IMG/VR virus record: IMGVR_UViG_3300032030_004230
DNA length: 64,000 nucleotides
Reading direction: 5' to 3' (one strand)
Source: a virus
Taxonomy: Duplodnaviria > Caudoviricetes
Shown here: one piece after another, positions 39,445 to 54,369 of the stretch
Numbering within the stretch: the stretch's first letter is position 1
Layout: the number at the start of each line of letters is the position of its first letter
Program-made: the position numbers and the translations under genes
The notes under the pieces: model-generated
The model's database searches: none
Seen by the model: only the letters and a program-made list of their open reading frames with translations
Told to the model about the DNA's origin: nothing

Positions 39445-39479
39445 AAATATTTAGTTTCTCTATGATTGGAGAGCATGCG

Positions 39480-40736
39480 CTAGAATGTTTTGTTAAAGAT
39501 CTCTTCAAGACCGTTGGCTGAGTCAAAAACAAATGCCTGAGCTCTTGGTGAGCATTCAAATCCCATTTCTGCAGACCATGCTGAACGACCAGACATAACA
39601 GGAAGTCTACGAACTACAAGCGGTCCAACATCAAGAACTTCTTCATGGTGCAAATGTCCAAGGAAGAAAGTCTTGAATTTGCAGCTAGACCAATCTTCTG
39701 CTTCATTGCTCATAATACGCTGAACTTCTTTGATTTTTGTCTCATGGCCAAAGCCAAGCAAATTCTGTCCGAATTTAAAATAAGTTCTTGGGTACTCATC
39801 AGATGTAAGGTCAATATCTACAAAAGGCACACCAGAGTACTTGTAGTACAATGCTGCCATCAATGCATGAGAAGACTGCTTATCATGATTTCCCTGTACA
39901 GAGAGAACATACACGTTCTTGAATGCTTTTCTAAGGAATTCAATTACTGTCACTGCAAGATGGACACCTGCATCAAAGACTGTGAAATGTCCAGCTTCAT
40001 TGTCTTGGCGAGTTCCTTTAGTAGTAGTGCCAAATACATTGTCTGCATTGAAGAAGTCATTGCCAAGAGTAAGAAGAACAGAATCAGCTCCGCCAGACTT
40101 AACTGCTCTTGAAGTTGCGTCAGTCACATAAGCTTTAAGACGCTCTTCAGCAATCTTCATATCATATCTATTGCCTGAAGTGTTGTAGTCTGAAAGAAGA
40201 CCATAGTGCAAATCAGCAATCGGAAGGACCAGCAAGCGACCATGATTTTCAATTTTCTCAACCTTAAGGTCCTCTGGCTTAAAATTGACAGCTTTGTCAA
40301 TTGTCTTCATAATCTGCTCAGGTGCGTAATCTTTAAGATTTCTCGGTTCAACCCAGATTTTAGAGGCTACAAGAGTGTCTTTTCCGTTTTCCCAAAGTGA
40401 GCTTGTTGATTTTGTCACTTTCCAAAGATTTGTGTCAAAGCCATGTAATTCCAAAAGCTCTTTCTCGTCTGTAGTGTCTTTTGCAAGAAGTGCTTCAGAA
40501 ACTGATTTACCAGTCTCAAAGTCGGTCTCACTTTTAAGCTTTTGTGATTCCTTATACAATGTAGGCTCTTCATGATTCTTCATGTACAAATACTTTTCTT
40601 TGTAAGTTTCTCCAGGCAGTTTTTTGAACAATGCAACTTCAGTTGAGTCTTTGTGTCTGTAAAGATATGATCTCAACTTCTTAGCATCAAATTCGCCTTC
40701 TGCATCGAAGAAATTTGTTAATTTTAGTGATGCCAC
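39480..40736 (-). CDS. calcineurin-like metallophosphoesterase (phage exonuclease-like)
   Basis: IADLHYG, LGNDFFNAD, QGNHD, FGHE, GHLHH; GTG start with AGGAG. Confidence 0.85.
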   Translation of the reverse strand: MASLKLTNFFDAEGEFDAKKLRSYLYRHKDSTEVALFKKLPGETYKEKYLYMKNHEEPTLYKESQKLKSETDFETGKSVSEALLAKDTTDEKELLELHGFDTNLWKVTKSTSSLWENGKDTLVASKIWVEPRNLKDYAPEQIMKTIDKAVNFKPEDLKVEKIENHGRLLVLPIADLHYGLLSDYNTSGNRYDMKIAEERLKAYVTDATSRAVKSGGADSVLLTLGNDFFNADNVFGTTTKGTRQDNEAGHFTVFDAGVHLAVTVIEFLRKAFKNVYVLSVQGNHDKQSSHALMAALYYKYSGVPFVDIDLTSDEYPRTYFKFGQNLLGFGHETKIKEVQRIMSNEAEDWSSCKFKTFFLGHLHHEEVLDVGPLVVRRLPVMSGRSAWSAEMGFECSPRAQAFVFDSANGLEEIFNKTF

Positions 40737-40800
40737 GAAATTCTCCTATTAAGAAATATTAACATTAGTCATACATTGAGAAGTCGAAACTAAATTTACA

Positions 40801-41904
40801 ATGATAGCACATTTAGCAAAGAGCTCTCACATTCTCTATGCAAATCTTAGCAGAAGTATAGACAAGTTTATTAAGAAACATCAGGAATTGCTAGATATCT
40901 CTGGAATAGACATATCATACAATGACAAATACATTGACATACATAATAAAAATTTTCTTAAGAGTGTTCTCGTCTCATATAAAGATGGTGCATTTTCTTT
41001 AGAGCCTATCAGTCCTCTTGAAGACTTACAGATAGCTCATAATTACATAGAGGTTGGCAGACTTCATAGATTTGGAAAATTGCATAATGACAAAATTTGT
41101 GAGCAACTCTATAGAAGTCAAAACTTCATAAGAGACTGGAAGCATATCAGAATAGATAGAGAAACATTTGCTCTTGAGAAAGAAGACTTAGACTTCAGCG
41201 AAGCATACTCCGTTAATGTAGAAGACTCTTTTGATTTGATTCTGCAGTGGATTGAGAAATATAAGAGCCTTACAGAAAAATATGTGTCTAAACAAATGTT
41301 TATTCCTACTTTGACAGGCGGTTTAGACACCAGAGCTCTTACATATTTCTGGAGAGACTTCATTGGAAAGCCAATTACAAAGTACTTCTTAAAAATAAAC
41401 AAAACTGCAGATGCAAGAAAATATGCGGAAGATCCTGCTGCATATCTTTCAAAATATGGAGAGACAATTATGAATACAGCAAAACTTGAATTAGCAAAAG
41501 ATGCGGTGGAGCATAAATTGTCGAGTCAAGTAGCAAAAAGACTTGGCAATTTAGAAGTACAGGCAAAGCTAGAGAATTTTCAAACAAGCTTAAGTGGTCT
41601 CGGAACTGATTCATCTCAATTCATAGAAAGAATGAACAATAAAGAATGGGTTAGACAAGTTGTTGGAACAAGATGTGCAACAGAACGTTTAATCTATCCT
41701 TTCTATGATGATTTATTTTTGAGAATAAAATTTCATAGAGTGCATGAGCAAAGAATCCTATTTGCTCTGATGCTATGTCCCGACTTGCTAGACATTCCAC
41801 TCGTATCTGACAGGAAGTTTGGCCAATATATGTTTAGTGATCTTGACTTAAACGTAATAAGTTATTGTGAGGAGCTTTTGAAAAAATGGAACTGGAAAAA
41901 TTAA
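40801..41904 (+). CDS. asparagine-synthetase-like PP-loop ATP pyrophosphatase (paralog A)
   Basis: IPTLTGGLDTRAL, LSGLG, YPFYD. Confidence 0.6.
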   Translation: MIAHLAKSSHILYANLSRSIDKFIKKHQELLDISGIDISYNDKYIDIHNKNFLKSVLVSYKDGAFSLEPISPLEDLQIAHNYIEVGRLHRFGKLHNDKICEQLYRSQNFIRDWKHIRIDRETFALEKEDLDFSEAYSVNVEDSFDLILQWIEKYKSLTEKYVSKQMFIPTLTGGLDTRALTYFWRDFIGKPITKYFLKINKTADARKYAEDPAAYLSKYGETIMNTAKLELAKDAVEHKLSSQVAKRLGNLEVQAKLENFQTSLSGLGTDSSQFIERMNNKEWVRQVVGTRCATERLIYPFYDDLFLRIKFHRVHEQRILFALMLCPDLLDIPLVSDRKFGQYMFSDLDLNVISYCEELLKKWNWKN

Positions 41905-42107
41905 GACTAATAGAACTTTTTATCAAAACTTGCTCTATCATAGAAGAAAACAAATCTAAAATCTCTACTATTAAAATTGAGAAAGAAGCGAATGGTGAAT
42001 TGTCTCTTTATGTCACTATAAATGATTCTTACAGTAAAGTTATGAAATTGCCAGTAACAAAATCATTTTTAGACAATTTTAGCTTTAACCTAGAAGATCT
42101 TAGCTAA
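41886..42107 (+). CDS. hypothetical 73-aa protein
   Basis: GAGGAG upstream; overlaps paralog A. Confidence 0.6.
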   Translation: MELEKLRLIELFIKTCSIIEENKSKISTIKIEKEANGELSLYVTINDSYSKVMKLPVTKSFLDNFSFNLEDLS

Positions 42108-43044
42108 ATACAATTTTGCTTGTATGATTGCAAAAATTGCATCTATGCGTACAAGTTATTGGAATTCGCATAAGAGCCTTTAATGCTTCATCTGTAATAG
42201 TCTCTGCTGGTAGTCTGATACATGAAACATCGCATGCAGAAGAAATCATTCCGTCAGGTGTTACTCTAAGTTTAGACTCATGTGCAAAACACTTTGCTCC
42301 GATAGTATTGATGCTTTGTATTGCTTCATATCTAGATATTTTTTGTTTGCTTCCATCTTTCAGAGTGACAATGAAGCACTTCTTTCTTTTCAATTCATTC
42401 TCTACTTCATCTGATGAAACTTCTTTAGCAGCTAATGTGTTGTCTTCATATCTCTCAGCTATCAATCCATGGTTAAGTTTTTCTCGCAGGCAATCATGAA
42501 GCCAGCTTCCAACTTGCTTTGAGTTCTCTCTTGTTTTCATTAGAATCACTTTTACAGAGCTTTTGTCTTCTACAATTTCTGAAAGCTTGCAAGCTTTTTC
42601 AAAGAATTCAGACCACTTTGCTTGAGAAGGGTGAAAGCTGCATGAAAGTCTAATATTGTTATAAGAACTCAAAAGTTCAGCATAGTAGTCGTATGATTGT
42701 GAGAAGTTTGTCACAATTCTTATATTGTCAAAGATGCTTGTATCCATCTTGTCAAAAAGCATCTTCTTTAATGGGAAGATTGTCACCTCTCCGCCTATTA
42801 ATGAAAAATCGTAGTTAATAGTTGGATTGATTAGCGATTTTATTCTTTTAGAAAGACCGCAAACAACTTCAGCATAATGTTCTATTAAGCTAATATCTAT
42901 TTTGTCTAGCTTTCTTTTATGTCCTTGAATACAGTAAGGACATCTATAATTGCATGCATAAGAGGGCAGCCACTGCAAGTCAAAAGTGGGCTTTCTTTTA
43001 TCTGAGAAAGCTGTCTCTAGCATCTTTATATCATTAGCACTCAC
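42100..43044 (-). CDS. radical SAM protein with Twitch/SPASM-like C-terminus
   Basis: CNYRCPYC, IGGE, TNFS, SFH, C..VTPDG...C...CxxxCxxC. Confidence 0.88.
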   Translation of the reverse strand: MSANDIKMLETAFSDKRKPTFDLQWLPSYACNYRCPYCIQGHKRKLDKIDISLIEHYAEVVCGLSKRIKSLINPTINYDFSLIGGEVTIFPLKKMLFDKMDTSIFDNIRIVTNFSQSYDYYAELLSSYNNIRLSCSFHPSQAKWSEFFEKACKLSEIVEDKSSVKVILMKTRENSKQVGSWLHDCLREKLNHGLIAERYEDNTLAAKEVSSDEVENELKRKKCFIVTLKDGSKQKISRYEAIQSINTIGAKCFAHESKLRVTPDGMISSACDVSCIRLPAETITDEALKALMRIPITCTHRCNFCNHTSKIVFS

Positions 43045-43894
43045 CTTTCACAATCTCCACTTTTCTTAAACCACATCCACCACATTTGTAAGAGCCACTA
43101 CAAACATGCGTCATCCCTGTCCACTTAAACAAGTCTTTCCCAAGCTCTCCAAGAAATACATTGCAGTTTTTGCAAGTACCAAGCCACATTTCATTATTTG
43201 GATATATCTTAATAGAGGAAAGATGACAAATTGCGTTTGTAGTGTCCACGCTTCTCAAAAAGTATTTGTCTTGCAAATCTTTTACACTGTCAACTTTAAG
43301 ATTTTTAACGCAAAATTTTCTATATTTTTGGATTATCTGATCACTTACAACAAGATTCTTCTTTTCATCAAACTCAAATGACACTCTCACATCGTCTTTC
43401 ATCACAGTCTTCAAAATTTTGAATGTGTTCTCATTATCATTTGTCATTACAAAATTGCATAATATCTCACAACCTTTAGATTTTAGATCGATGTATTTCT
43501 TTAAAAAATCTTCAATAGAGCAGAAGTTCTCGTGGAATGATGCACTTATGACTATTGGGTACTTTGAACGTAGGTACGTATAGAATTCTGCAGTGTTAGA
43601 GAGATTTGTGTTAATTCTGAACTTAGCAATGTTTTTTGCATTTACAACATTAAGCACTTTATCTAAATCAAGCAAAGATGGTTCTCCACCAATTATTTGC
43701 ACTACGTACTTTGTGTCACTGTTGTATTCTATGAAATTGTGCAGACTTTTTGCATTACTTAGAATCTTCTCCATAGAAGGATATGCATCCTGCCTTGGGC
43801 TGTGCTTTACAAAACAATAGCTATAATTGTAGTTGCAGATGTCTGATAGTTCCCATTGAATAGTAAGAGATTTGATAGGCTTTTCTATGATCAT
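43034..43894 (-). CDS. radical SAM paralog with degenerate motif (CxxxYxxC)
   Basis: CNYNYSYC, GGEP, TNLS, ASFHE, C-terminal Cys cluster. Confidence 0.82.
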   Translation of the reverse strand: MIIEKPIKSLTIQWELSDICNYNYSYCFVKHSPRQDAYPSMEKILSNAKSLHNFIEYNSDTKYVVQIIGGEPSLLDLDKVLNVVNAKNIAKFRINTNLSNTAEFYTYLRSKYPIVISASFHENFCSIEDFLKKYIDLKSKGCEILCNFVMTNDNENTFKILKTVMKDDVRVSFEFDEKKNLVVSDQIIQKYRKFCVKNLKVDSVKDLQDKYFLRSVDTTNAICHLSSIKIYPNNEMWLGTCKNCNVFLGELGKDLFKWTGMTHVCSGSYKCGGCGLRKVEIVKGEC

Positions 43895-43920
43895 AAAGTC
43901 TTCCTCAATTCAATCAAATC

Positions 43921-44862
43921 TTAGCTAAATTTCACTCTTTTAGCATTTATTGGGAACGAATTGCAGAATAACTCTGCTTCACATCTATGCTTTGTTGGCT
44001 TTATTACAATTTCATCTGTGTATAAGTTTCCCAAAATATATTTAGACAAATAGTTGCACAAGCCTTCTCGTACAATACCCTCTGGTCTTATTTGCACTGT
44101 ATGACACTCACATTCAAAATCATGCATGTCAATTGAGCCAAACTCTGACTGTAGCTTAGAATAACTGTACTTATAGAAATTTCCATCTTTTGTGATGAAC
44201 TTCACATTGTTGTTTTTCATATTATTGGCTAAGTAGTCTAGAATCTTTCTCTCTTTTTCTTTGTCTTTCAGCTCAACTGGTGTTTTATTTTTATCGTACT
44301 CAATTCTAAATTTTATTGGAACATCTTTTATGTTGTTAATGAGTTCGCAACACATATCTATATTATTATTGTTCACAACAACTCCGATGGTCATAAAGTT
44401 GTCAAAGCCCACTTTTCTTACTTTATTGAAAAACTCATTATAGTCTGGAACTGCTTCTTCGTGGTAACTTGCATATAGCTTTAGAGGAATCGACTTTTGC
44501 CTACAGAAGTCCTTTAGCTGAATATAGTATTCTGCGTCTCTGAAAAAATTAGACGTCACCATAAATGAAGAGATAAACTCACTTGTAAGATTCTTCATTA
44601 GAGGGAGCAAATCATATATGCAAGGCTCTCCTCCGATAAACTTCATGTCCACAGGAATCTTACTACGTAGAATCATCTCATTTATCTTTAATGAAAGCTT
44701 CTCCACTTCTTCTTGCGAAAGAAAAGAACTCTCTCTTGCATTCATAAGTTTATTGCTGCAAAAAGGACAATCATAATTGCAAAATTTTGTGATCTTCCAC
44801 TCAGCAATCATAGAATTGCTATTTTTTCTATCTACAAATTCGACGACATCATTTATATTCAT
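43921..44862 (-). CDS. radical SAM protein with Twitch/SPASM-like C-terminus
   Basis: CNYDCPFC, GGEP, ASYHEE, IRPEG...C...LGNL...C. Confidence 0.88.
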   Translation of the reverse strand: MNINDVVEFVDRKNSNSMIAEWKITKFCNYDCPFCSNKLMNARESSFLSQEEVEKLSLKINEMILRSKIPVDMKFIGGEPCIYDLLPLMKNLTSEFISSFMVTSNFFRDAEYYIQLKDFCRQKSIPLKLYASYHEEAVPDYNEFFNKVRKVGFDNFMTIGVVVNNNNIDMCCELINNIKDVPIKFRIEYDKNKTPVELKDKEKERKILDYLANNMKNNNVKFITKDGNFYKYSYSKLQSEFGSIDMHDFECECHTVQIRPEGIVREGLCNYLSKYILGNLYTDEIVIKPTKHRCEAELFCNSFPINAKRVKFS

Positions 44863-45853
44863 TTTTCACTACCACTCTATTTATCTTTATATTTGTCGGC
44901 AATTGATCGCACCTATTTTCATAAAGCTCCTTAAACTTTTCAAGACGCATAATCTCATGTCTTTCCATGTGATCAATCCATTCTTCAATATTCTTGAAGT
45001 GCACTTTATTAATGTATTTGTTTCTGATTCTAAGAAGTTCTTGTTGCTTTTCTAAAGAGACTTCTGACAGCCACTTTTTGTTTAAGTAGAGCTCTTTCCC
45101 TTGAAGCATTGCTTGATGTCTTCGTTTTTGACATAATTCTAGATTAAGAGAGTCTTCTAGAAAATGCATTGTCATCTCTACTCCTGAGTCTCTAGCAGGC
45201 GCAAAAGCCCAAGAGTATCTATTATTTTCAATCCATGCAATTGCAACAACATTGAAGCCATTCTCTATTTGTCTAATACACTCTCTAATCAAGTTACCGC
45301 ATTTGTTATGTCTACTGTTGTAATAGCTGTAGTCTGATACATTGCTACTATTGAACAGGATTATTACACTATTTCCAAGTTCAGATTTTAGTTTTTCTGC
45401 ATAAGTATGGCAACCTGCGCCTTTACAACCGATGATTAGGTGATATGAGCCTGCTGGCTTGTAGCTGTACCACTTATCAAAGATGGGCTTAATCATGTCT
45501 GGAATAAAGTCTTTAAAGTAGTCTAGTTTCTCAATGTCAAATCTAAAATCATTCAAATGAAAAATGTTTTCTTTATTATTTGACAACACAATAAGTTCTG
45601 TGACATATTTGTAAACAATGTTTTTAAAGCAACAGCAGGTCTCCTCTGCAAATTCTTCAATTTGGGACTCCTCTATAATAACAACAGCTTCTCTTACAGA
45701 GTTGTCGTAGTCTCTCAAGACATTGTAGCATTGTGACATATTTAAGAAGTATACTGCGTTATCTTGCACTGAGTCTATGTCAAAATCCTCTAGAGTTTTA
45801 GCTTCAAAGTCTTTGTATAGATTTGTTTTCTTCTCTGTAAACGAAAATATCAT
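44849..45853 (-). CDS. hypothetical protein with degenerate P-loop kinase (AAA_33/PNK-like) domain
   Basis: LIIGCKGAGCHTYA, GFNVVA, LELCQKR. Confidence 0.5.
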   Translation of the reverse strand: MIFSFTEKKTNLYKDFEAKTLEDFDIDSVQDNAVYFLNMSQCYNVLRDYDNSVREAVVIIEESQIEEFAEETCCCFKNIVYKYVTELIVLSNNKENIFHLNDFRFDIEKLDYFKDFIPDMIKPIFDKWYSYKPAGSYHLIIGCKGAGCHTYAEKLKSELGNSVIILFNSSNVSDYSYYNSRHNKCGNLIRECIRQIENGFNVVAIAWIENNRYSWAFAPARDSGVEMTMHFLEDSLNLELCQKRRHQAMLQGKELYLNKKWLSEVSLEKQQELLRIRNKYINKVHFKNIEEWIDHMERHEIMRLEKFKELYENRCDQLPTNIKINRVVVKNEYK

Positions 45854-46416
45854 TCTTCAGCAACCTTCTTAAAAGTATCAAACATGTCTTCAAATAAGAA
45901 ATTGTCTTTCAAGTATTCTAGGATTTTCTCATCATTTTTGACAATTCCATGACCTCTAAGCTTTATGATAGACTTGAACAAATCTTCATTATCAAAGTCA
46001 TTTTGCCATTTATTTAAGATTAACTGAAATAAGTATCTGTACAGAAAATCTTTATAGTTGAATCTGATATCTGAATGTCCACGCTTCTTAGCAACTCTTA
46101 GAGTCTCTTTCATTAGAGCATAATTCTCAATAAGAGGAAACTTGACAATAGAACTTTTCTTTTCAAGCAATAGACTAAACAGCCCAACTACTTCATTAGA
46201 CTCATTGATGTCTTCTGTAGAACACAAATATGGGAAGTGTCTTATATTCAACAAGAAATCATTTTCTGGCGAGGCTTTTATAAATTGATAGCAATACTTA
46301 AAATAGTTTCTCTTATCAACTTTATTGTCTTCTACATGCAAGGCTGTCTCATTAAAAGACTTATTAAGATTCATTGCATTTACTCTAACAAGTTCAAACA
46401 ATTTAAGATAAATCAT
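45850..46416 (-). CDS. hypothetical protein in the radical SAM operon
   Basis: ATGA-coupled ORF. Confidence 0.7.
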   Translation of the reverse strand: MIYLKLFELVRVNAMNLNKSFNETALHVEDNKVDKRNYFKYCYQFIKASPENDFLLNIRHFPYLCSTEDINESNEVVGLFSLLLEKKSSIVKFPLIENYALMKETLRVAKKRGHSDIRFNYKDFLYRYLFQLILNKWQNDFDNEDLFKSIIKLRGHGIVKNDEKILEYLKDNFLFEDMFDTFKKVAEE

Positions 46417-46422
46417 TCTCTT

Positions 46423-47433
46423 TTACCACCATTTTTCAGCATCTTTGCTTTCAGAAATAGAAAGGTCCTCAACTGTTTCCTCTACTTTAGACACACTTCT
46501 TACAAGTTCCAATCTGCACTTATCACCACTCTCACAGACAATTGGCTTTGTGCTAAGACTAAAATGATAGTCCTCATAAATATTTCCAAGAGGCCTGTTG
46601 AGCCAAGCTCTGCATTGACCGTGAGCTACAAGACCATCAGGATTTATGTTTATCCCGCTTGAAGTGCAGTACATATCTTTCAAGACTTCATCTGCATAAG
46701 TCATTCTAAATCCGTGTATGTCGGTCTTTCGTATAAGACCTGAGTCTTCTTTTATTTCTATATGAAGTCTTCTTTCATCATCTTGATTATTCAATCGTCT
46801 TAATAGACTTAAAGAATCTCTATACTTTTTATTTTTGACTAAAATAGCTTTATGAGTCTTATAGTCAAAGCAATTTAATATTGTAGTGTGCTTGAAGTTT
46901 TTCGATAATTTTATAAGATTGCTTATATTGTCTTCTGTTAAGACAGAATTGACGGATCTTAAGTCTTTTATCTTCTTTGCTTTCTCTATAAAAGAGTCGA
47001 TGTCTACTTGAGAATTATGAAATGAAGCTTTAAGCTTTAATTTAGGACCAAGAAATGCGCATAAGTCATTATAGTATTCTGCAGTGTTTGAGAGATTTGT
47101 CGTTAATGTCACTTTCCCTACTAGCTGATTGTCTATCAAAGGCTTAAGTATTCTTTTGCAATCAAAAAGAGTCATTTCTCCGCCAAGTACAATGAACTCT
47201 ACATTTTTCACATTTATGAAATAAATCATTTTGCTTATTTGATTCGCAGCAAATTCAAGTCTTTCTTGCGTAGGATGACTCTCTGACTTCTGTCTTAATT
47301 CTCTTTGATAGCAGTACTCACATTTGTAATTACAGTCAAGAGTTGCAGTCCACTTAATTTTGTAGGCAAATTTACTGTCCTGATAGATATGCTGTATGCT
47401 CATTCTATTCTCTGAATATGACACATAGGACAT
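46423..47433 (-). CDS. radical SAM protein with Twitch/SPASM-like C-terminus
   Basis: CNYKCEYC, GGE, TNLS, ASFH, CTSSGININPDG...C...LGNI...C. Confidence 0.88.
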   Translation of the reverse strand: MSYVSYSENRMSIQHIYQDSKFAYKIKWTATLDCNYKCEYCYQRELRQKSESHPTQERLEFAANQISKMIYFINVKNVEFIVLGGEMTLFDCKRILKPLIDNQLVGKVTLTTNLSNTAEYYNDLCAFLGPKLKLKASFHNSQVDIDSFIEKAKKIKDLRSVNSVLTEDNISNLIKLSKNFKHTTILNCFDYKTHKAILVKNKKYRDSLSLLRRLNNQDDERRLHIEIKEDSGLIRKTDIHGFRMTYADEVLKDMYCTSSGININPDGLVAHGQCRAWLNRPLGNIYEDYHFSLSTKPIVCESGDKCRLELVRSVSKVEETVEDLSISESKDAEKWW

Positions 47434-48230
47434 CTGCTTTTAGAGCATGTCACCAAGTGTTCTTTTAGTATTTCTTCAGTATTGTATAATAAGTCAATAT
47501 GCCCAAACTGCACAAGCTTACAGTTATTTGCAAACAATCGTCCATCACTTTTTATTAAAAGACCATGTTGATAACAAGTTTTTCCTTGCATATTTTGCTG
47601 CTGATTTCTATATCTATTAAGCTCTTCTTCTGAAAAATCGAAATTAATGCTGCTAATGCTCTCATTCTTGTTTGGGTCAAATCGTAGTTTTAAGTCTTTG
47701 TGTCTTTTTCTAAGTTCTTTCATATAATCAACATTTTTAGAAGTAACGACACACTCAATGAATGAATTTTCTAGAGACTTCTCTAAGCTTTCATACTTCT
47801 TAAAAAACATAGCTTCTTCTGCGAATTCTTCATGAAAGGATGCACAGAATAACAATTCAATTTTGCGATCTTCACACCATTTGATAAGCTCTTTATAGTA
47901 TGGTTCAGTATTGCTAAAATTTGTGTAAAACTCAAGAGACTTAAGATTGTCTACATATAAAGCATTCAAAATCTCTATTAGACTTTTAATGATAGAAAGT
48001 TCTCCGCCTGCTAGAACAAGCTTAATCGGCTTTTTCACTTTAAGAAGGATCTCTTTCAATTTTTTAGCTCTAGAAATAGCAGTATCTTCAGAGAAAACTT
48101 TACGCTTATCTGACTCTACTTGAGTGCAATAACTGCATCTAAAATTGCATTGTGTCGTTATCTGCCATTTGACAAGAAAATAGCTAAAATTATCTGTAAG
48201 CATTTTGTACAAGAGTCTCCTTGTGCACAA
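47400..48230 (-). CDS. radical SAM protein with Twitch/SPASM-like C-terminus
   Basis: CNFRCSYC, GGE, TNFS, ASFHEE, IKSDG...C...CSKSRCPMC. Confidence 0.88.
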   Translation of the reverse strand: MCTRRLLYKMLTDNFSYFLVKWQITTQCNFRCSYCTQVESDKRKVFSEDTAISRAKKLKEILLKVKKPIKLVLAGGELSIIKSLIEILNALYVDNLKSLEFYTNFSNTEPYYKELIKWCEDRKIELLFCASFHEEFAEEAMFFKKYESLEKSLENSFIECVVTSKNVDYMKELRKRHKDLKLRFDPNKNESISSINFDFSEEELNRYRNQQQNMQGKTCYQHGLLIKSDGRLFANNCKLVQFGHIDLLYNTEEILKEHLVTCSKSRCPMCHIQRIE

Positions 48231-49251
48231 GAATTTTCTTTAAGTCTTCTTTGTCTCTGCACATGCTAGTGTTTCCAAAAGCTGTGCAGAATTTATGCTT
48301 TAGCTTTCCAGTGTTCTGCCAATCTATTGTGGTATGACATTGAATCGGCTCAGTCGGCATCGTGTATTCATTAGTCAAAAGACTTCCTATTCTATTTTCA
48401 GGCTTTCCGCACCATTGACAGCCCGCTAGTCTTAAAGAGCCATCTGCTTCAATTCTCAATCCGTCTAATCCTGCAGAACAATAAAATCCCTCTGGGTCTA
48501 GCCCGCCGTCTTTGACACTATTTATAAGCTCTATATTTGAGCTAAACTCCAAGACTGAACCGTCTTTCATTGTGACAAAAAAGTAGGGCTTTACTGATTT
48601 TTTCATTTGAGAATTCAAAAAATCAACAATTTTCATAGTCTTTTCTGAGATGCTTGAATTCTCATTATCTGCAATTCTCTCTACAGTTGGCTGAATCACT
48701 ACATTTGGATATTTCTTTGTTAGCTCTAAGTATTTCAGAATGTTCTCATCATTTACTACGCACTTAGCTCTAGACCTTCTGTTATTCCCTTGATTTATAC
48801 GGGAAAGCTTTTGCATAAACTCATCAGGGTCACAAAACTCTAAATGCATAGATGCTGTGATAGTGAATTCACAGCCTCGATTCTCACAGTAATCTCTTAA
48901 TCTTAGCCAATAGTCTAGTGAAGATGAAAGATTTGTAACAATAAGAACTTTCTTCAATTGTTTAGACTCTATTTGTTCTAAGACTTCTATCAAATTGAAG
49001 TAACCAACTTCTCCGCCAATAAGATGAAGCATAAAAGGCTTTTCTGGAAAGTATGTCTTTGCTAGATTGTCAATGTTTTTTGCAATTGTCAACAAATTCT
49101 CTTTTGGTGTATTCTCTACAGCATTCTTTACATTATTTGCCATGTAGCAATATGAGCATCTGTAATTGCACCAATTTGTCATCTTCCAAGAGAACTTAAA
49201 AAGAACACTGTTTCTTTCTATAGAAACAATATCTTTCATATCAATCATCAA
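48190..49251 (-). CDS. radical SAM protein with Twitch/SPASM-like C-terminus
   Basis: CNYRCSYC, GGE, TNLS, ASMH, CSAGLDGLRIEADG...C...IGSL. Confidence 0.9.
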   Translation of the reverse strand: MMIDMKDIVSIERNSVLFKFSWKMTNWCNYRCSYCYMANNVKNAVENTPKENLLTIAKNIDNLAKTYFPEKPFMLHLIGGEVGYFNLIEVLEQIESKQLKKVLIVTNLSSSLDYWLRLRDYCENRGCEFTITASMHLEFCDPDEFMQKLSRINQGNNRRSRAKCVVNDENILKYLELTKKYPNVVIQPTVERIADNENSSISEKTMKIVDFLNSQMKKSVKPYFFVTMKDGSVLEFSSNIELINSVKDGGLDPEGFYCSAGLDGLRIEADGSLRLAGCQWCGKPENRIGSLLTNEYTMPTEPIQCHTTIDWQNTGKLKHKFCTAFGNTSMCRDKEDLKKILVHKETLVQNAYR

Positions 49252-49252
49252 T

Positions 49253-50593
49253 CTAGAACACCTCTACATTACAAGAGAACATACAAATAGAATTAGGACA
49301 ACTTATCACATCGTCTTTTATAGAGAAATCAAAGTCTTTTATATCTGCTATCTTAGTTTTTTGCTTGCAAGACCTGCGATATACGCTCCCATCAATGTCA
49401 ATATAAAGACCATTAGAGCGACAGTCATGTCCAACAGACACAAAGCCAGATATCTGAGAATGATGAATTTTCTCTCCATTCAAGAAAATATCTTCTTTCT
49501 TGTTAGATACATCAAAACTCTTCTTAGCAATGATGTTATCTTGTCTATCTCTTAAGTAATCTAGTGATATTTTTATTTTATCATTTTTGACATTCAGAAG
49601 TTTCTCAATTGTGTTAGAATTCTCATCTGTAGAAACGCATTCAATATACAGCTTATCTACAAAATTGGCGACACCTTCTGCTTTCGAAATGAATTCATTC
49701 TCATCACACTCAGTCTCATGCAAGGAGCATGAAAGCTCTAATTTTACATTTCTTGAATGAAGATAACTAGCAAGCTCTTCAAAATATGAAAATGACTTTG
49801 AGAAGTTTGTCGATACATAGACTGCTTTCAGAGCGCTAGTCTTTATTTCACTCATTAGAGCTTTTAAGTCTATAAGAGTAACTTCTCCGCCGATGAGCTC
49901 TAGTCTGAAGGGTTTTGTCATTCTACTGAGACAATGAGCTCTCTCTATCAGAGTTGAGATGCCCGGAAATTTTTTGTCTTGCAAGTCTTTCCGTATGCAA
50001 TAAGAACAGTGATAGTTGCATTCATTAAAAAGACGCCATTTTATATAAAACATAGGGTCTTCTAGACAAACATCTTTTATTGCATGAGAGCTGTCAATAT
50101 TCGCTTTTGTGCTTTCTACTTTGCAGTCTTTACTTGTGCATCTCTCACATTGCAATTTCGGCTCTGGAGCTTTTTCAGAAAGACTACAAACAAATTCTTT
50201 TTTATCACAAGTGCCATAAAAGAACTTATCATTAATAATTGAGACAGTGTCCACTCTATTTGCGCAAATAAAACTGTCTTCTAGCTCTATGTCTAGCAAA
50301 GCCTCATCTTTAGAGCATCTTTCGACAAGTTCTTTTAATGTCACTGTTGTGAAAGGACAATTGTCTGACCCATAAGATGTTCTTATCAGTCTCTTATTAT
50401 GAAATGCTGCAGCTACATAACGTAATTTCTTAGACATGTCAGAAGCTATCTCTGCAGAACAGTTAAAGTACACAACTATAAGCTTGAAAGCATTTATTTT
50501 GTCAAAGTACTTATTAAGATTTTCAATTGCAGTGTCAGACAGCTCTTTATCTAAGCTAATCTGAACTTGAAGTCTTCTTCTCGAGTAAATCAT
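49253..50593 (-). CDS. radical SAM protein with an extra N-terminal degenerate rSAM/Twitch-like module
   Basis: Internal CNYHCSYC, GGE, TNFS, SLHE; Cys clusters both before and after the domain. Confidence 0.85.
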   Translation of the reverse strand: MIYSRRRLQVQISLDKELSDTAIENLNKYFDKINAFKLIVVYFNCSAEIASDMSKKLRYVAAAFHNKRLIRTSYGSDNCPFTTVTLKELVERCSKDEALLDIELEDSFICANRVDTVSIINDKFFYGTCDKKEFVCSLSEKAPEPKLQCERCTSKDCKVESTKANIDSSHAIKDVCLEDPMFYIKWRLFNECNYHCSYCIRKDLQDKKFPGISTLIERAHCLSRMTKPFRLELIGGEVTLIDLKALMSEIKTSALKAVYVSTNFSKSFSYFEELASYLHSRNVKLELSCSLHETECDENEFISKAEGVANFVDKLYIECVSTDENSNTIEKLLNVKNDKIKISLDYLRDRQDNIIAKKSFDVSNKKEDIFLNGEKIHHSQISGFVSVGHDCRSNGLYIDIDGSVYRRSCKQKTKIADIKDFDFSIKDDVISCPNSICMFSCNVEVF

Positions 50594-51524
50594 CTAAAAC
50601 TTTCCTATCTCTTGCAATGCTAAAATCACCGCATAGACTGCACAGACCATTTGCACTTATGCATTTAGTCGGTTTCAAATCTTTTATATGATATTCAGAA
50701 ATTGGTGTGTACTCATAAGATCGCACACAATAGCTGTTCTTTGCAACTTTGTCTTTGTTCACATAAATGTACGTAATTCCAGCTGTGCAATAAAAATCTG
50801 TTGACGGGATTGCCTTCTCTGGATATCTGTTTATGAGTTTACTTCTTGTTAGAGTAGTATCTTCTGAGTTATCTGAATAGATAATTTTCCATCTTGGCTT
50901 TGACACAGAAGACTGAATGTTGAACTCTTTAGCAAAGTCTTCATTTTGCGATTTGTCAAACTCTAACAGAAGCTCTGCATCGTACTTTTTGCAAGTGTCA
51001 ATCACTTTCTGCAGAAGATGCTTACTTTCTGGTGCAATCACAAACTCGATCTTTAATTGATAGACATATTCAGGACTACAAGCGTCTTTGAACTTTTTGA
51101 ATTTTGAAACGAAATCTTCTATGTCTACATACTCATTGTGCAAACTTGCTGTCATAGACAATAGAATTTCTCTGCTTTCAAGATACTTTGCAAAGTCTAT
51201 GTATGACTCTAATGAATTAGAGAAATTTGTCGTAATATTTACTTTTTTAAGATTTTTTGAGCTGATGCATGATACAAGTTTTTTGAGATCAAAATAAGTG
51301 ACTTCTCCACCAATCAAATTGATTTTAGTCGGTCTTCCAGATTCTTCAATAAGTCGATTAATCTCTGGCGCAGTTCTTAGAACTCTTTCAAAGTCTAATT
51401 TTGTGTCTTGCCCTTTGAATTTCCGTAAGCAGTATGAGCATCTGTAATTGCACCATTCTGTAAGTCTCCACTTGATAGTAAAGAGACTTTCATGATGGAT
51501 AATTGCTGAAATAGACTTCTCCAT
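50556..51524 (-). CDS. radical SAM protein with Twitch/SPASM-like C-terminus (start revised to MEKSI)
   Basis: CNYRCSYC, GGE, TNFS, ASLHNE, CTAG...C...CxxxxxxCxxC. Confidence 0.88.
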   Translation of the reverse strand: MEKSISAIIHHESLFTIKWRLTEWCNYRCSYCLRKFKGQDTKLDFERVLRTAPEINRLIEESGRPTKINLIGGEVTYFDLKKLVSCISSKNLKKVNITTNFSNSLESYIDFAKYLESREILLSMTASLHNEYVDIEDFVSKFKKFKDACSPEYVYQLKIEFVIAPESKHLLQKVIDTCKKYDAELLLEFDKSQNEDFAKEFNIQSSVSKPRWKIIYSDNSEDTTLTRSKLINRYPEKAIPSTDFYCTAGITYIYVNKDKVAKNSYCVRSYEYTPISEYHIKDLKPTKCISANGLCSLCGDFSIARDRKVLDDLLEKKTSSSD

Positions 51525-51554
51525 AAAAAAAAATATTAACAAAACTAAATTATC

Positions 51555-52481
51555 ATGGAAGAATCAAAAATTAGCTCTTTAACTACCAGTGAACTTGAAA
51601 AAATCTATAAAGAGTACACTCATAATCAAGTCTGGTATGAGTACCCATTCTTTTCAGCACTAGAAACGATTAGATTAGTAGATAGCGTTATCGACAACAA
51701 GTACTCTATTATAGAGCAAAGTGCTGGCTTAGCAGGGATGTCTCTATTGTTCAATCTTCTTTCAGCAAAAGTGAAAAACACTTATATCATTGACAATAGA
51801 ACACTCAATCAGTATCTCCCCGTGATTAAAAACTTAGATGTGCCAGCTTATTTTGATACTTTTGCTAAAGAACATAATATGAAAGTTAGATATGGAGATC
51901 TTCTAACAAAAGATGACTTTCATCGAAAAGGTAAAGAACCTCATGTGTATCTTATTTATTGTTATGGCGAAAATATTTTCAAATTTTTGAACACAATGCA
52001 AGAAAACAACAATTTGCAGACAAATGACTTAATTGTTGTGTCTACTACAAATGAAGCAAGAGTTGGCAATGATCCACACATGTGTCTCTGTAAGTATTTA
52101 GAGATTAGCAAAAATGTAAAACTTGTAAGAAGAACTTCTTCAGGTGGTAACACAATTTCAGTGTTTCAGATCATTGATAGAAGTGTAGACTTCTCAAAAG
52201 ACTTTGTTGTGCAGATGGAAACATTGCGAGTTAATATACTTGAAAAATTTAAGCCTGAAAACTTGCAGGATTCTGATTTCACAAAATATGAGAATCTTAC
52301 ACAGCATCTTATAGATAAGCAAAAGTTCTATGTAACAACAAACTATACGACTATCTTTAAGAGTAAAGGCTACACAGACAAGCAAATTGAAAAGCTATCT
52401 CTTCAAGAGAAAAGATTCGCTAAAGACTTTATAAGAAGCTTTTATTATACAATTAGAGGAACAGTGTTTAGAGATGCATAA
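51555..52481 (+). CDS. hypothetical protein, possibly class I SAM-dependent methyltransferase-like
   Basis: IIEQSAGLAGMS followed by YIID resembles MTase motifs I/II; weak. Confidence 0.35.
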   Translation: MEESKISSLTTSELEKIYKEYTHNQVWYEYPFFSALETIRLVDSVIDNKYSIIEQSAGLAGMSLLFNLLSAKVKNTYIIDNRTLNQYLPVIKNLDVPAYFDTFAKEHNMKVRYGDLLTKDDFHRKGKEPHVYLIYCYGENIFKFLNTMQENNNLQTNDLIVVSTTNEARVGNDPHMCLCKYLEISKNVKLVRRTSSGGNTISVFQIIDRSVDFSKDFVVQMETLRVNILEKFKPENLQDSDFTKYENLTQHLIDKQKFYVTTNYTTIFKSKGYTDKQIEKLSLQEKRFAKDFIRSFYYTIRGTVFRDA

Positions 52482-53244
52482 TGACTTTGTAATTGATGAT
52501 TCAATATATTCTGTGCCAATCGAGAATGCATATGAAGTTTTGCATGATTGGTGGTACGACATTCTAGAGCAGTTAAGAGGCAAAATCATAAGATTTGACA
52601 TAACTGCTGGAATGGACACAAGATTCTTTTTGTCTTGGCTTAGTAGAGGCATTGCAAAAGAGCTTTACTTCAATAATAGACCTTATAAATTTGAAGGTGA
52701 AGAGAAAGCAAAAAAAGAGCCAAGCTTGAGAGCACATGGTACGTACGGAATGGATGCTCTAGGCTACATGTTTGGCATTATGCTTGATGCTAAGCCAGGT
52801 GCCAAATGGCAAGATTGCGAACTTTGCTTATCAGGTGCAAGAGCTTCTCAAATTTTAGGCAAAGATCCTGACAGAATAGATGAGTGTACAAAAAACGGCA
52901 TCACTTTCATAATTGAAGAATGTCGCAGACACAAAACTCTGTCTAAACCAAATTTTATGAATCCATTCTTTCATAAAAATATTTTTATGGTAGACTTCCA
53001 TAAGGAAATGAAGCTTCTTTCTACAGTGTTGTACTTGATTTACATGCCAGAATGGGCTCTGAGATTTCCTTTTAAGTCGATGACATATGACCCATACTAC
53101 ACAATCTGGGATTTGCCTGTAGAGCGAGCTAGAGCTATAATCTCTCAGTGGCCATTGAATGATTTTGAGAAAGAGAACTATTCTAAAAATATGAAGCTTT
53201 ATGACTCAATGACTAAGAGAAAAGCGTCGGTTTTTAGATTGTAA
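52474..53244 (+). CDS. asparagine-synthetase-like PP-loop protein (paralog B)
   Basis: FDITAGMDTRF, LSGA, NPFF; aligns by eye with the C-terminal part of 40801-41904. Confidence 0.55.
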   Translation: MHNDFVIDDSIYSVPIENAYEVLHDWWYDILEQLRGKIIRFDITAGMDTRFFLSWLSRGIAKELYFNNRPYKFEGEEKAKKEPSLRAHGTYGMDALGYMFGIMLDAKPGAKWQDCELCLSGARASQILGKDPDRIDECTKNGITFIIEECRRHKTLSKPNFMNPFFHKNIFMVDFHKEMKLLSTVLYLIYMPEWALRFPFKSMTYDPYYTIWDLPVERARAIISQWPLNDFEKENYSKNMKLYDSMTKRKASVFRL

Positions 53245-53256
53245 AAAGAGGCTTCA

Positions 53257-53418
53257 ATGGATTGGAAATTACTAAAAAGACATTCTGACACTCTGCTAGA
53301 GTTATGGAAGACTCCTACAAAGTATCTTGTTTGCAAAACATACGAAAGATTTTACAAGTTCTTTGAGACTCATAATGAAGCTCTTGCGTATTTTAATGCT
53401 AAAAGGCAAGAGAGTTAA
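53257..53418 (+). CDS. 53-aa hypothetical protein (not in ORF track)
   Basis: MDWKLLKRHSDTLLELWKTPTKYLVCKTYERFYKFFETHNEALAYFNAKRQES; GAGG SD. Confidence 0.6.
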   Translation: MDWKLLKRHSDTLLELWKTPTKYLVCKTYERFYKFFETHNEALAYFNAKRQES

Positions 53419-53427
53419 TATCTTGAA

Positions 53428-53982: not shown

Positions 53983-54367
53983 AAATATGCTCACATCTTT
54001 TTTTGACAATATTGATCGTATCAAATATCCCGTTTCTATTTCTCGTTTTAGTCCATCTTGGTATGAAGGACCAAAGTATCTAGATGTTGCCCCATCTGAA
54101 AGTCTTTTGAATTGGTACCATAATGAAAAGAAAAATGGTGCTAATGAGTACAATCTTCAAAAAGAATACGAACAAAAATACATAAATGAGACACTTAGTC
54201 AATTAAATCCAGAAAAAGTCTGGAATGACATTTGTAGTCTCTATCCTGAAGCTGATTCAAGAGAAATCACTCTTCTTTGCTATGAAGCACCCGGAAAATT
54301 TTGTCATAGGCATCTATTAGCTGCTTGGCTTAAAAAGCATGGCTATCAAATAAAGGAGAAACTGTAA
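53963..54367 (+). CDS. DUF488 family protein
   Basis: ISRFSPSWY, VAPS, ITLLCYE.PG.FCHRHLLAAWL; start may be MLTSFF. Confidence 0.8.
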   Translation: MEFLSSRNMLTSFFDNIDRIKYPVSISRFSPSWYEGPKYLDVAPSESLLNWYHNEKKNGANEYNLQKEYEQKYINETLSQLNPEKVWNDICSLYPEADSREITLLCYEAPGKFCHRHLLAAWLKKHGYQIKEKL

Positions 54368-54369
54368 TT

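Follow-up and report, generated by a model that had tools for sequence, protein, structure and literature searches.

Gene modules encoding multiple radical SAM (rSAM) enzymes have been noticed in phages since 2010, when they were described in the Campylobacter phages CP220 and CPt10 (Timms et al. 2010, PMC2853527). Eight rSAM genes have since been reported within a structural cluster of Aeromonas phage 332-Vera (2025; PMC12390700), and rSAM cassettes are found in the host-recognition clusters of pelagimyophages (PMC7029224). The stretch of DNA analysed herein (64,000 nucleotides, hereafter the window) carries an rSAM array that a preliminary description had called part of a candidate undescribed modification system, a term that is too strong given that multi-rSAM phage modules are present in the literature and that gp081 of CP220 belongs to the same family as the paralogs of the window. 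The carrier of the array is a giant uncultured rumen phage. The array is also not unique, as orthologous arrays are found on gut metagenome contigs; the partnership with PP-loop proteins, the nearest cellular relatives in Treponema, one of which is fused to an RluA-type enzyme, and the lack of space for a RiPP recognition domain are new here.

The array comprises eight co-directional, tightly packed rSAM paralogs, A to H, on the minus strand at 42100-51542, with neighbouring genes in the operon overlapping or separated by at most 26 nt. All 28 pairwise BLASTP comparisons gave E-values of 1.3e-7 or lower, and a family HMM trained solely on the arrays of other contigs matched all eight proteins over their full length (E 3e-43 to 3e-82), both of which agree with the arrangement first described. 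As A shares just 24-28% identity with the other paralogs in the window, these are divergent, old paralogs and not recent copies, as had been proposed. Positions W25, C31, N32, C38, the GGE motif, N106, S133/H135 and two C-terminal Cys residues are constant in all eight, and every paralog has at least four Cys residues in a twitch-like C-terminal domain. Among the motifs said to be shared, GGE and the C-terminal Cys residues hold throughout, while the complete CX3CX2C motif is lost in G (CNYNYSYC). The suggested search with PF04055 gave weak matches, and A alone passes the gathering score. All eight score below the NCBIfam cut-offs of the known metabolic rSAM families, which argues against a generic metabolic boost of an anaerobic host, the role originally proposed for CP220 and CPt10 (PMC2853527). 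Although the anaerobic or low-oxygen life of the hosts would suit such a role, we consider it very improbable, because the fixed pairing of rSAM, PP-loop and accessory proteins described below indicates a dedicated pathway.

The first gene of the operon, A (50556-51542; 328 aa from a TTG start, 322 aa from the ATG at 51524), contains CNYRCSYC, GGE and four to five C-terminal Cys residues, and scores 30.4 bits against PF04055. Its AF2 model (pLDDT 91.8) predicts a radical SAM barrel with a twitch-like C-terminus that aligns with EpeE, BlsE, MoaA, SkfB and viperin at Z 14-15. Orthologs of A are 52-57% identical in the sister arrays L001 and L005, and 41% in L003. B (49253-50593; 446 aa) has a full rSAM module (residues ~170-445) and, ahead of it, a Cys-rich extension similar to the family's C-terminal half; this N-terminal domain matches HMM positions 219-307 and 120-299 in the L005 and L003 orthologs, and the window copy gives a weak match (iE 0.085). 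Orthologs share 49-53% identity in L001 and L005 for B, and 46-54% in L001, L005 and L003 for C (48190-49251; 353 aa). C represents the type that is naturally fused to a PP-loop or 404-aa-type domain, with the rSAM domains of the fusion proteins P0217, P0180, P0099 and P0154 being nearest to it. The family HMM also recognizes D (47400-48230; 276 aa; CNFRCSYC), which has no clear ortholog in the sister arrays according to the tree, and E (46423-47433; 336 aa; CNYKCEYC), which clusters weakly with L003 13047 (SH-aLRT 83). F (43921-44862; 313 aa; CNYDCPFC) scores 29.3 bits against PF04055, and H (42100-43044; 314 aa; CNYRCPYC) is the last gene of the operon. In G (43034-43894; 286 aa), Tyr replaces the middle cluster Cys through a TAT codon one transition from TGT; GGE and the C-terminal Cys residues are kept, and the family HMM matches the full length of the protein (E 1.4e-43).

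The orthologous arrays, on contigs of 27-282 kb, have a constant A-B-C core and variable further copies. The A, B and C orthogroups are well delimited in the tree (SH-aLRT 95-100), and D-H differ between sister arrays in copy number and identity. In bovine gut runs, relatives about 90-95% identical span the whole array, and the indels listed in them are intergenic, in-frame or compensated. One indel, at position 54365, falls in a DUF488 gene outside the array. In bacterial MAG loci, relatives occur as neighbouring rSAM pairs. The natural fusion of paralogs in P0099 (992 aa, two CX3CX2C modules) and the N-terminal half-module of B are compatible with physical association of the paralogs. Such fusions, including other B-type proteins, the intact retention of the degenerate G and the translational coupling across the whole operon would all fit one hetero-oligomeric rSAM machine that carries out a single reaction, with G and the N-terminal module of B as structural parts. 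This is nonetheless quite improbable, as D-H vary between sister arrays while machine subunits are usually fixed, and as the family is present in a single copy in small phages and Treponema.

The array is flanked on the plus strand by two PP-loop paralogs. The gene at 40801-41904 (+) encodes an Asn-synthetase-like PP-loop protein of 367 aa without a glutaminase domain (TGGLDTR, YPFYDD, CPDLLD), which resembles PF00733 clusters in the Atlas by features (0.94-0.95) and by predicted structure (TM 0.53-0.61), and whose Atlas neighbours include QueC-bearing clusters. It is homologous to the C-terminal domain of P0217 (E 9e-15), a natural fusion of a PP-loop homolog with a C-type rSAM, and aligns with array proteins of L001 and L005. 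The shorter paralog at 52474-53244 (+; 256 aa; TAGMDTR) is matched by a joint PP-loop HMM (E 8e-82), with a pairwise E-value against 40801-41904 of only 0.017, and by phmmer it matches a 388-aa Treponema protein (E 1e-25) encoded two genes from an A-like rSAM (L094). The homologs embedded inside the L001 and L005 arrays, the P0217 fusion and the Treponema neighbour couple PP-loop to rSAM proteins and, together with the Atlas match, bear out both the flanking paralogs and the co-occurrence that had been anticipated. This supports the PP-loop proteins as real partners of the rSAM array.

Two non-rSAM genes are indeed located within the array. The product of 45850-46416 (-), an accessory protein of 188 aa with the motif YKDFLYR (PYKDYLYK in sister arrays), has homologs in L005 (E 2e-8) and, via L005, in L003 (E 1e-10), and gave no match in Pfam, PHROG and NCBIfam searches. 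That of 44849-45853 (-; 334 aa) has a C-terminal half with a P-loop-kinase fold (AAA_33/zeta/KTI12-like) and a degenerate Walker A (GCKGAGCHT); its ESM Atlas matches have feature scores of 0.90 and a predicted-structure TM of 0.70-0.74 by target. A small P-loop protein with an intact GCPGIGKT is encoded between the B and C genes of L001. The 308-aa protein encoded divergently from A at 51555-52481 (+) had been considered a possible methyltransferase, a suggestion that could not be verified: Pfam and PHROG searches gave no match and its AF2 model has a pLDDT of 42; it has no assigned family and no homolog in the sister loci. After the first PP-loop gene lies a 73-aa ORF (41886-42107, +) without a family match. 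The island is followed by large proteins without assigned function (1735 aa and 501 aa). The locus is a member of a conserved, modular phage gene system. In addition to the operon of twitch-type rSAMs, in which copies specific to each lineage accompany a fixed A-B-C core, this system contains a P-loop-kinase-like protein, a small helical protein and one or two PP-loop ATP pyrophosphatases that lack a glutaminase domain.

We favour, with a probability of roughly 35%, a nucleoside-containing substrate and nucleic-acid hypermodification over glycan or virion tailoring, all functional links being made by association. The sister clade of A consists of cellular Treponema genes (SH-aLRT 98; 38-44% identity), and one Treponema lineage has the A-like gene joined to an RluA-type pseudouridine synthase (PF00849 E 6e-24; HRLD motif intact), directly upstream of rimP-nusA-infB-rbfA-truB. 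In another Treponema MAG, a further and divergent member of the family is encoded about 3 kb ahead of the rimP-nusA-infB operon, on its upstream side, and in L001 and L005 the gene overlapping the start of A has a weak match (E 1.3e-4) to Peptidase_U32, a family to which TrhP and RlhA, O2-independent hydroxylases of RNA pyrimidines, belong. The best NCBIfam partial matches of A are to nucleotide-using rSAMs (viperin 1e-11, MoaA 9e-9, QueE 5e-6), ahead of peptide maturases at about 1e-3. The pairing of rSAM and PP-loop proteins has a parallel in QueE/QueC, and the window also codes for a tRNA nucleotidyltransferase and a thymidine kinase; FolE, QueD and DpdA were not seen in the window. Several observations weigh against this reading. 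The U32 match falls short of the Pfam cut-off, the window has neither this gene nor any tRNA gene, and the isoelectric points are not uniformly basic. The RluA fusion is bacterial, about 40% identical to A, and says nothing direct on B-H; the position upstream of rimP may be one where integration is frequent. Sugar-handling genes recur near related arrays (L005, L175, L003, P0029 and CP220), and family members often lie beside tail or tail-fibre genes.

In nucleic-acid hypermodification, each active rSAM would cleave SAM at its CX3CX2C cluster and remove a hydrogen atom from the substrate, while electrons would be handled by the C-terminal four-Cys cluster. Adenylation of a carboxylate or carbonyl oxygen of that substrate would fall to the PP-loop proteins and lead to amidation or another substitution. 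Successive steps or different sites would be split among the diverged paralogs, with G (Cys to Tyr) and the N-terminal half-module of B probably acting as non-catalytic partners. The likeliest substrate would be a pyrimidine, either of tRNA or rRNA or of the DNA of the phage itself, modified by an O2-independent pathway that may have been taken from, or be common with, the probable Treponema host and then expanded.

It is only slightly less likely that the system instead tailors a glycan or nucleotide sugar, with the rSAMs editing sugars, the PP-loop proteins amidating uronic acids and the product decorating the virion, tail fibres or a cell-surface glycan. BlsE, DesII and BtrN are examples of rSAMs from a sugar-editing repertoire that includes epimerisation, deoxygenation, decarboxylation and C-methylation, and WbpS and PseA amidate uronic acids; BlsE is among the top structural neighbours of A, with DesII and BtrN also listed. 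In L005, B and C are separated by a gene for a GT_PLOD-like glycosyltransferase. A short UDPG/GDP-mannose-dehydrogenase-like gene adjoins the L175 array and the P0029 rSAM and is found downstream of the L003 array, at a distance of about 5 kb; a methyltransferase, Stealth and two GT2 genes are further members of the P0029 locus. The CP220 array contains three GT-like genes, an amidinotransferase and a PAP2 phosphatase, and cyanophage S-SCSM2R couples a sugar-aminotransferase-like enzyme, an amidinotransferase and an rSAM (PMC12801897). However, searches of the window's array and of about 10 kb around it yielded neither a glycosyltransferase nor a sugar-nucleotide enzyme, and the dehydrogenase-like proteins, of just 266-306 aa, have only their N-terminal and central Pfam domains on record. 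While related genes adjoin tail or tail-fibre genes (PMC12390700, PMC7029224), such regions are general hot spots for accessory genes, and the nearest cellular relatives have links with an RNA enzyme and a ribosome-biogenesis operon rather than with glycan loci.

Structure does not discriminate between these readings and a third, as peptide-, sugar- and nucleotide-acting rSAMs tie at Z 13.6-15.1. The top structural neighbours include EpeE, SkfB, anSME, SuiB and CteB, and SkfB gives a full-length profile alignment (E 1.8e-6), so modification of peptides (RiPP-like maturation) or of virion proteins (by cross-linking, epimerisation or amidation) has to be weighed. The PP-loop proteins would then act like lasso cyclases or C-terminal amidotransferases, AsnB-like enzymes being established to form isopeptide or lactam bonds; the two large proteins encoded after the island would also fit this reading. 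We nevertheless regard protein or peptide modification as improbable. Seven of the eight paralogs have the start of their cluster motif at residues 19-34, which leaves no room for an RRE or leader-binding domain; no PqqD or RRE Pfam match was obtained; no precursor-like or Cys-rich small ORF was found, with operon gaps of at most 26 nt and a single Cys in the 73-aa ORF, which is neither Cys-rich, repeat-rich nor precursor-like; and the cellular sister genes lack a peptide context. Of the multi-step system initially envisaged, the multi-gene grouping of rSAM and PP-loop proteins stands, its RiPP-like option is disfavoured and its undescribed status is overstated.

The upstream motif reported to be common to 40801, 51555 and the gene at 60255-61760 was recovered. 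CTAAWT is rarer overall than expected (71 vs 127), and AACTAAWT precedes the ATG of six genes, these three included, by 10-14 nt, where by our own estimate about 0.25 would be expected; AACTAAAT is placed 11 nt ahead of the ATG of 40801-41904 and 10 nt ahead of that of 51555-52481. Late expression and a virion substrate had been hinted at from this short motif, which the rSAM operon itself lacks, and are not supported here.

With respect to characterised enzymes, the paralogs share with BlsE, SkfB, MoaA, EpeE, anSME and viperin a partial TIM barrel, CX3CX2C, GGE and a C-terminal auxiliary-cluster domain. The model of A aligns with characterised twitch/SPASM rSAMs over 215-266 residues at 12-18% identity, MoaA and SkfB also being found by sequence profile; unlike these enzymes, the window paralogs lack an RRE and reach no family cut-off. 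QueE/QueC, which provide 7-deazaguanine biosynthesis for phage DNA modification, likewise combine an rSAM with a PP-loop ATP pyrophosphatase on a nucleotide-derived substrate, yet the partial matches to QueE are weak, scores are far below the cut-offs and eight paralogs exceed the need of that pathway. Bacterial STM4011/STM4012-type rSAM pairs (NF038073) are the best or second-best NCBIfam partial match for most paralogs, but at 18-43 bits against a cut-off of 200, and they form a separate clade (SH-aLRT 100). As in the NF033640 arrays of aquatic phages, B has a Cys-rich domain before its core, and family relatives occur in IMG/VR loci beside 392-aa proteins with an N-terminal SPASM/twitch domain and an rSAM core. 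In contrast to NF033640, which has sugar-gene partners, the paralogs carry their auxiliary Cys domain C-terminally, score 25 bits against a cut-off of 170, and belong to a gut lineage with PP-loop partners. 332-Vera and the pelagimyophages are also jumbo or large phages whose multiple rSAM genes have been called highly unusual and unexplained, although tail-fibre genes surround their arrays; a search of the phage collection gave no sequence match to 332-Vera. The CP220 module differs in its amidinotransferase and nucleotide-sugar-transferase-like genes, in having a single rSAM clearly in the window's family and no detected homolog of the window's PP-loop proteins, and in its unrelated host and phage lineage. 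What CP220 and CPt10 share with the window is that a lytic phage of a gut host has many rSAM genes, closely packed in one direction with non-rSAM tailoring genes in between, and the family HMM of the window recognises the whole of CP220 gp081 (E 2e-20).

Ten minus-strand genes are packed into positions 42100-51542 of the window, with overlaps or gaps of no more than 26 nt between neighbors. Eight of the ten are mutually homologous radical-SAM (rSAM) genes, referred to here as A (50556-51542), B (49253-50593), C (48190-49251), D (47400-48230), E (46423-47433), F (43921-44862), G (43034-43894) and H (42100-43044). All 28 pairwise BLASTP comparisons of their products were significant (E 1.3e-7 to 5e-32), the other paralogs share 24-28% identity with A, and an HMM made solely from the arrays of other contigs matched all eight over their full length (E 3e-43 to 3e-82). 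Invariant features comprise a W, a C-N-x2-[C]-x2-C frame, GGE, N, S-x-H and two C-terminal Cys, with at least four C-terminal Cys in each paralog. The CX3CX2C motif for the SAM-cleaving [4Fe-4S] cluster is intact in every paralog but G; there, with GGE and the C-terminal Cys kept, it reads CNYNYSYC, where Tyr replaces the middle cluster Cys (bracketed in the frame) via the codon TAT, one transition from TGT. The two Pfam profiles named in the preliminary description fared differently: PF04055 matched weakly (A 30.4 bits, F 29.3, others 17.6-25.7), with A alone above the gathering score of 29.5, and PF13186, the SPASM/twitch auxiliary cluster profile, had no match among the paralogs at E 0.01. 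None of the eight reached a family cut-off in NCBIfam, PHROG or PADLOC.

An AlphaFold2 model of A, built with 39 homologs (pLDDT 91.8), has a partial TIM-barrel and resembles solved twitch/SPASM rSAMs at Z 13.6-15.1 (EpeE, BlsE, MoaA, SkfB, viperin and anSME). The structural alignments with BlsE and SkfB extend to model residues 315-320 of A, and MoaA and SkfB were also retrieved by sequence profile. The model agrees with the pairwise comparisons, the independent HMM and the motifs in bearing out the eight divergent rSAM paralogs of the preliminary description. In twitch enzymes the C-terminal Cys-rich domain holds one extra [4Fe-4S] cluster, and in SPASM enzymes two; judging from the model and from four Cys conserved among A orthologs (C252, C272, C294 and C301), the corresponding domain of the paralogs is predicted to be a twitch-like cluster site. 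B carries in addition a Cys-rich N-terminal extension of 170 residues, which in its L005 and L003 orthologs (from related arrays on other contigs) matches the C-terminal half of the rSAM family; the window copy matches the family weakly (iE 0.085).

The structural neighbors of A tie across substrate classes, and the RiPP maturase SkfB is among them. The RiPP-like peptide tailoring suggested earlier is disfavored: rSAM maturases such as SkfB, SuiB and PqqE have an RRE/PqqD-like domain and an adjacent precursor, neither of which was found at the window array. In all but one of the paralogs, the cluster motif starts at residues 19-34, leaving no space for an RRE, no array protein had a Pfam match to PqqD/RRE, and no precursor-like ORF was found beside the array.

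The window is part of a 326,542-bp contig from a sheep gut metagenome. The 269,920-bp contig L001 and three contigs of 27-42 kb (L005-L007) carry orthologs of A at 52-57% identity, and the 282,046-bp contig L003 carries one at 41%. By tblastn and tree, A, B and C form conserved orthogroups (SH-aLRT 95-100); D-H are lineage-specific, as are the additional copies in the other arrays. L003 has four rSAM copies, and L001 and L005 have eight each, counting a truncated remnant. This remnant (L001:15186-15578, 130 aa) aligns with the family over its first ~30 and last ~75 positions alone and reads as an internally deleted rSAM paralog retained within the array. In the tree, all gut-phage copies cluster with gp081 of Campylobacter phage CP220 (SH-aLRT 96), apart from marine-phage copies and bacterial STM4011/4012-like rSAM pairs. 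When 1.84 billion representatives were searched with a profile, 255 clusters were found at E<=1e-30 and 2376 at E<=1e-10; most are stand-alone proteins with lengths of 280-360 aa.

Relatives with ~90-95% nucleotide identity, covering the whole array, were found in bovine gut metagenomes from other studies. Nearly all of their listed indels are intergenic, in-frame or compensated, a pattern that fits coding constraint on all array genes; the exception, at 54365, lies outside the array within the gene for a small DUF488-N3a protein (53963-54367; E 2.5e-10; PHROG 2450) just past the island. Among INPHARED phages, megablast with the array and tblastn with E and a 1735-aa protein gave no match, and tblastn with A gave only weak partial matches to Campylobacter and Agrobacterium phages. 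A sheep metatranscriptome contained identical contigs over parts of 39022-41203, 45297-46471, 51660-51844 and 53408-55662; as these are compatible with DNA carry-over, and the stretches they leave uncovered carry no information, we make no claim of transcription.

Phage-type functions in the window include an exonuclease, DUF5662, a tRNA nucleotidyltransferase (1011-2543; PHROG 2244, E 5e-55) and a thymidine kinase (61942-62505; PF00265, E 2e-29), along with a weak match to nicotinamide phosphoribosyltransferase (3169-4470). Such nucleotide and tRNA genes are usual for jumbo phages; no tRNA gene was found within the window. In the sister contigs, the genes at L001:1-329 and L005:3524-4036, ~10 kb or less from the arrays, specify either SAM synthetase (MetK domains) or SAM lyase, enzymes with opposing effects on the SAM pool used by the arrays. 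L003 also has a reverse transcriptase gene (RVT_1; L003:190-1419) ~7 kb upstream of its rSAM array; this gene adjoins one for a 1049-aa protein and may belong to a diversity-generating retroelement.

On the plus strand, the array is flanked by genes for two proteins with variants of the PP-loop motif SGGxDS, TGGLDTR in the 367-aa product of 40801-41904 and TAGMDTR in the 256-aa product of 52474-53244; homologs have SGGIDTR, SAGLDSR or SGGLDTR. These proteins had no Pfam match at E 0.01, and nothing was found in a PDB sequence search. In the ESM Atlas, the product of 40801-41904 adjoins Asn_synthase (PF00733) clusters (features 0.94-0.95, structure TM 0.53-0.61), and a PF(Y/L)DD block of the PP-loop proteins aligns with the position of the AsnB motif PFLD. 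No GATase match indicative of an N-terminal Ntn glutaminase was obtained for either protein, and the PP-loop lies at residue 44 of the 256-aa and residue 172 of the 367-aa protein, which points to a likeness to glutaminase-less members.

A motif scan placed PP-loop proteins within the sister arrays as well (437 and 264 aa in L001, 401 aa in L005), and these align with both window proteins via the PP-loop, PF(Y/L)DD and CPxLL blocks. A natural fusion, the 683-aa protein P0217, joins a C-type rSAM to a domain like the product of 40801-41904 (pairwise E 9e-15), and the product of 52474-53244 matches a 388-aa protein (E 1e-25) encoded two genes from the A-like rSAM of a Treponema MAG contig. Together with the Atlas neighbors, the sister-array homologs and the fusion support the PP-loop assignment made in the preliminary description, and the rSAM-PP-loop association recurs in the L001 and L005 arrays, in P0217 and on the Treponema contig. 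One outcome that the preliminary description named as refuting, a lack of co-occurrence between homologs and PP-loop genes, was therefore not borne out.

Of the two non-rSAM proteins encoded inside the array, the 188-aa product of 45850-46416 has homologs within the L003 and L005 arrays, and the 334-aa product of 44849-45853 is P-loop-kinase-like with a degenerate Walker A; a small, intact P-loop-kinase-like protein is encoded in L001. A word-based homolog search with the 367-aa and 188-aa proteins retrieved only themselves or a near-identical copy. A 404-aa protein family that adjoins the L003 array showed no relation to the PP-loop family by hhalign. Members of this family occur fused to a C-type rSAM in P0180 (699 aa); in other such fusions, the C-type rSAM is in tandem with another rSAM module (P0099, 992 aa) or joined to an unassigned 300-aa domain (P0154, 617 aa), and all three could help to map the parts that act together. 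Distant from the array, 10628-11578 encodes a third protein with a PP-loop motif (316 aa, MFSGGFDSLSL), for which neither a PHROG match nor a relation to the array PP-loop proteins was detected. For the candidate class I SAM methyltransferase (51555-52481, 308 aa) no family match was obtained; its single-sequence AF2 model has a pLDDT of 42, and IEQSAGLAG followed by YIIDN is suggestive only.

The upstream motif that had been reported as common to the plus-strand flanking genes and 60255-61760 was found again in extended form: six genes (2530-3072, 38380-39006, 39013-39444, 40801-41904, 51555-52481 and 60255-61760) have AACTAAWT at a distance of 10-14 nt ahead of the ATG. CTAAWT itself is rarer than expected in the window (71 sites versus 127 +/- 12), and as only ~0.25 AACTAAWT sites would be expected by chance at such positions, by our estimate, we regard the motif as real. 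It is probably a phage promoter or leaderless-start signal for one class of genes. The rSAM operon is without it, and 60255-61760, described earlier as a probable virion gene, has no family match; a late-gene role for the motif, as hinted at earlier, would be speculative. In DNA this rich in AT, scanning for sigma-70 promoters and terminators yielded nothing informative.

When one genome from each prokaryote species was scanned, the best full-length matches to A (38-44% identity) all came from rumen or gut Treponema MAGs, which thus hold the nearest cellular relatives of the system. These A-like genes are single-copy and chromosomal, and form the sister clade to phage A (SH-aLRT 98). One lineage (P0016/P0082, with contigs as long as 193 kb) has a fusion of an A-type rSAM with an RluA-type pseudouridine synthase in which the HRLD motif is intact (PF00849, E 6e-24). 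This 544-aa protein (L169:8001-9635; also L091:4539-6170, L170 and L171) is encoded directly upstream of rimP-nusA-infB-rbfA-truB/ribF, with flagellar genes nearby, and the start of its gene overlaps a 395-aa gene that matches no assigned family. We consider it a candidate for an undescribed RNA-modification enzyme. A divergent family member in another Treponema MAG (L095:1388-2464, 359 aa, 29% identity) lies ~3 kb upstream of rimP-nusA-infB and is closest to the viral contigs L009-L011. Its position reflects either conservation of placement or a hot spot for integration. In L001 and L005, a gene overlapping the start of A has a weak match to Peptidase_U32 (E 1.3e-4, just under the cut-off), and nothing was found for its product in a PDB sequence search. 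The Peptidase_U32 family includes the oxygen-independent RNA hydroxylases TrhP and RlhA, as well as UbiU/V. Collectively, the Treponema clade, the RluA fusion, the rimP context and the U32-like gene suggest that the host is probably Treponema and make RNA pyrimidines a candidate class of substrate, for the A type at least.

Other neighborhoods point toward glycan or virion tailoring. L005 has a GT_PLOD-like glycosyltransferase gene between B and C, and short UDP-glucose/GDP-mannose-dehydrogenase-like genes lie by related arrays (L003, L175 and the P0029 locus, which also has two GT2 genes, Stealth and a methyltransferase). The CP220 array includes GT-like genes, an amidinotransferase and a PAP2 phosphatase. 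In smaller phages, family members directly follow tail-tip or tail-collar genes, and rSAM genes among tail-fibre and host-recognition genes have been reported (PMC12390700, PMC7029224). The family also shares IMG/VR loci with 392-aa rSAMs bearing an N-terminal SPASM/twitch domain. No sugar gene was found near the window array. The evidence is divided between a glycan or virion substrate and a nucleic-acid or nucleoside substrate, and we judge the former only slightly less likely than the latter. The isoelectric points of the proteins fail to separate RNA binding from other readings. We prefer a nucleic-acid or nucleoside substrate, at a probability of about 0.35, because the gene fusion found among the closest relatives, and the chromosomal setting of these, offer more specific evidence than plastic tail-fibre neighborhoods. 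A glycosylated base as the product would reconcile both readings.

The island is a conserved modular phage system in which twitch-type rSAM paralogs are combined with PP-loop, P-loop-kinase-like and small helical partners. We infer a multi-step or multi-site covalent tailoring pathway, in which the rSAMs would activate C-H bonds of the substrate and the PP-loop proteins would adenylate a carboxylate or carbonyl, enabling substitution. One specific and rather improbable form of the nucleic-acid reading is an oxygen-independent hypermodification factory, in which a Treponema rSAM/PP-loop RNA-modification module was captured by a jumbo phage and amplified to eight specificities that install new pyrimidine modifications on tRNA, rRNA or phage DNA. 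Sister phages would perhaps add hydroxylation by the U32-like enzyme or glycosylation by the glycosyltransferase. If this were true, its purpose would be to evade host defences that target tRNA or DNA, in an anaerobic habitat that precludes O2-dependent TET/JBP-type chemistry. Whichever the substrate, this rSAM family of ~255 clusters (E<=1e-30) is likely to carry out new radical chemistry.

Phage rSAM roles found in the literature are those of single enzymes, namely QueE and the thymidine-hypermodification isomerase. The 5-hmdU DNA kinase (5-HMUDK) and the pyrophosphorylase (aGPT-Pplase) that adjoin the rSAM isomerase in thymidine hypermodification clusters were not matched in 38-64 kb by PHROG or Pfam; the degenerate P-loop-kinase-like protein is encoded in this region. 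The paralogs differ from viperin/pVip (NF038283; best score 44 bits against a cut-off of 180, with only the N-terminal ~90 residues aligned) and from the STM4011 family (NF038073; 18-43 bits against a cut-off of 200, and a separate clade in the tree), and PADLOC assigned them to no defence system, finding only weak N-terminal pVip similarity. Precedents exist in other phage arrays. In CP220 and CPt10, Timms et al. (2010) described 11-12 rSAM genes, five of which form an exchangeable module with an amidinotransferase; they called this load 'highly unusual' and offered a metabolic boost as a guess (PMC2853527). The structural cluster of phage 332-Vera contains eight rSAM genes (PMC12390700). In the CP220-type module, gp081 belongs to the window's rSAM family; for the amidinotransferase and GT-like genes of that module no window homolog was found. 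We found no paper that gives such arrays a function, and they have been unexplained since 2010 while recurring in many large phages. Beyond these earlier descriptions, the system characterized here offers a minimal conserved A-B-C core, obligate PP-loop partners, tied to it by embedding in sister arrays and by natural fusion, and a cellular counterpart in the Treponema pseudouridine-synthase fusion, which defines a candidate class of substrate and provides a bacterium where the chemistry could be revealed.
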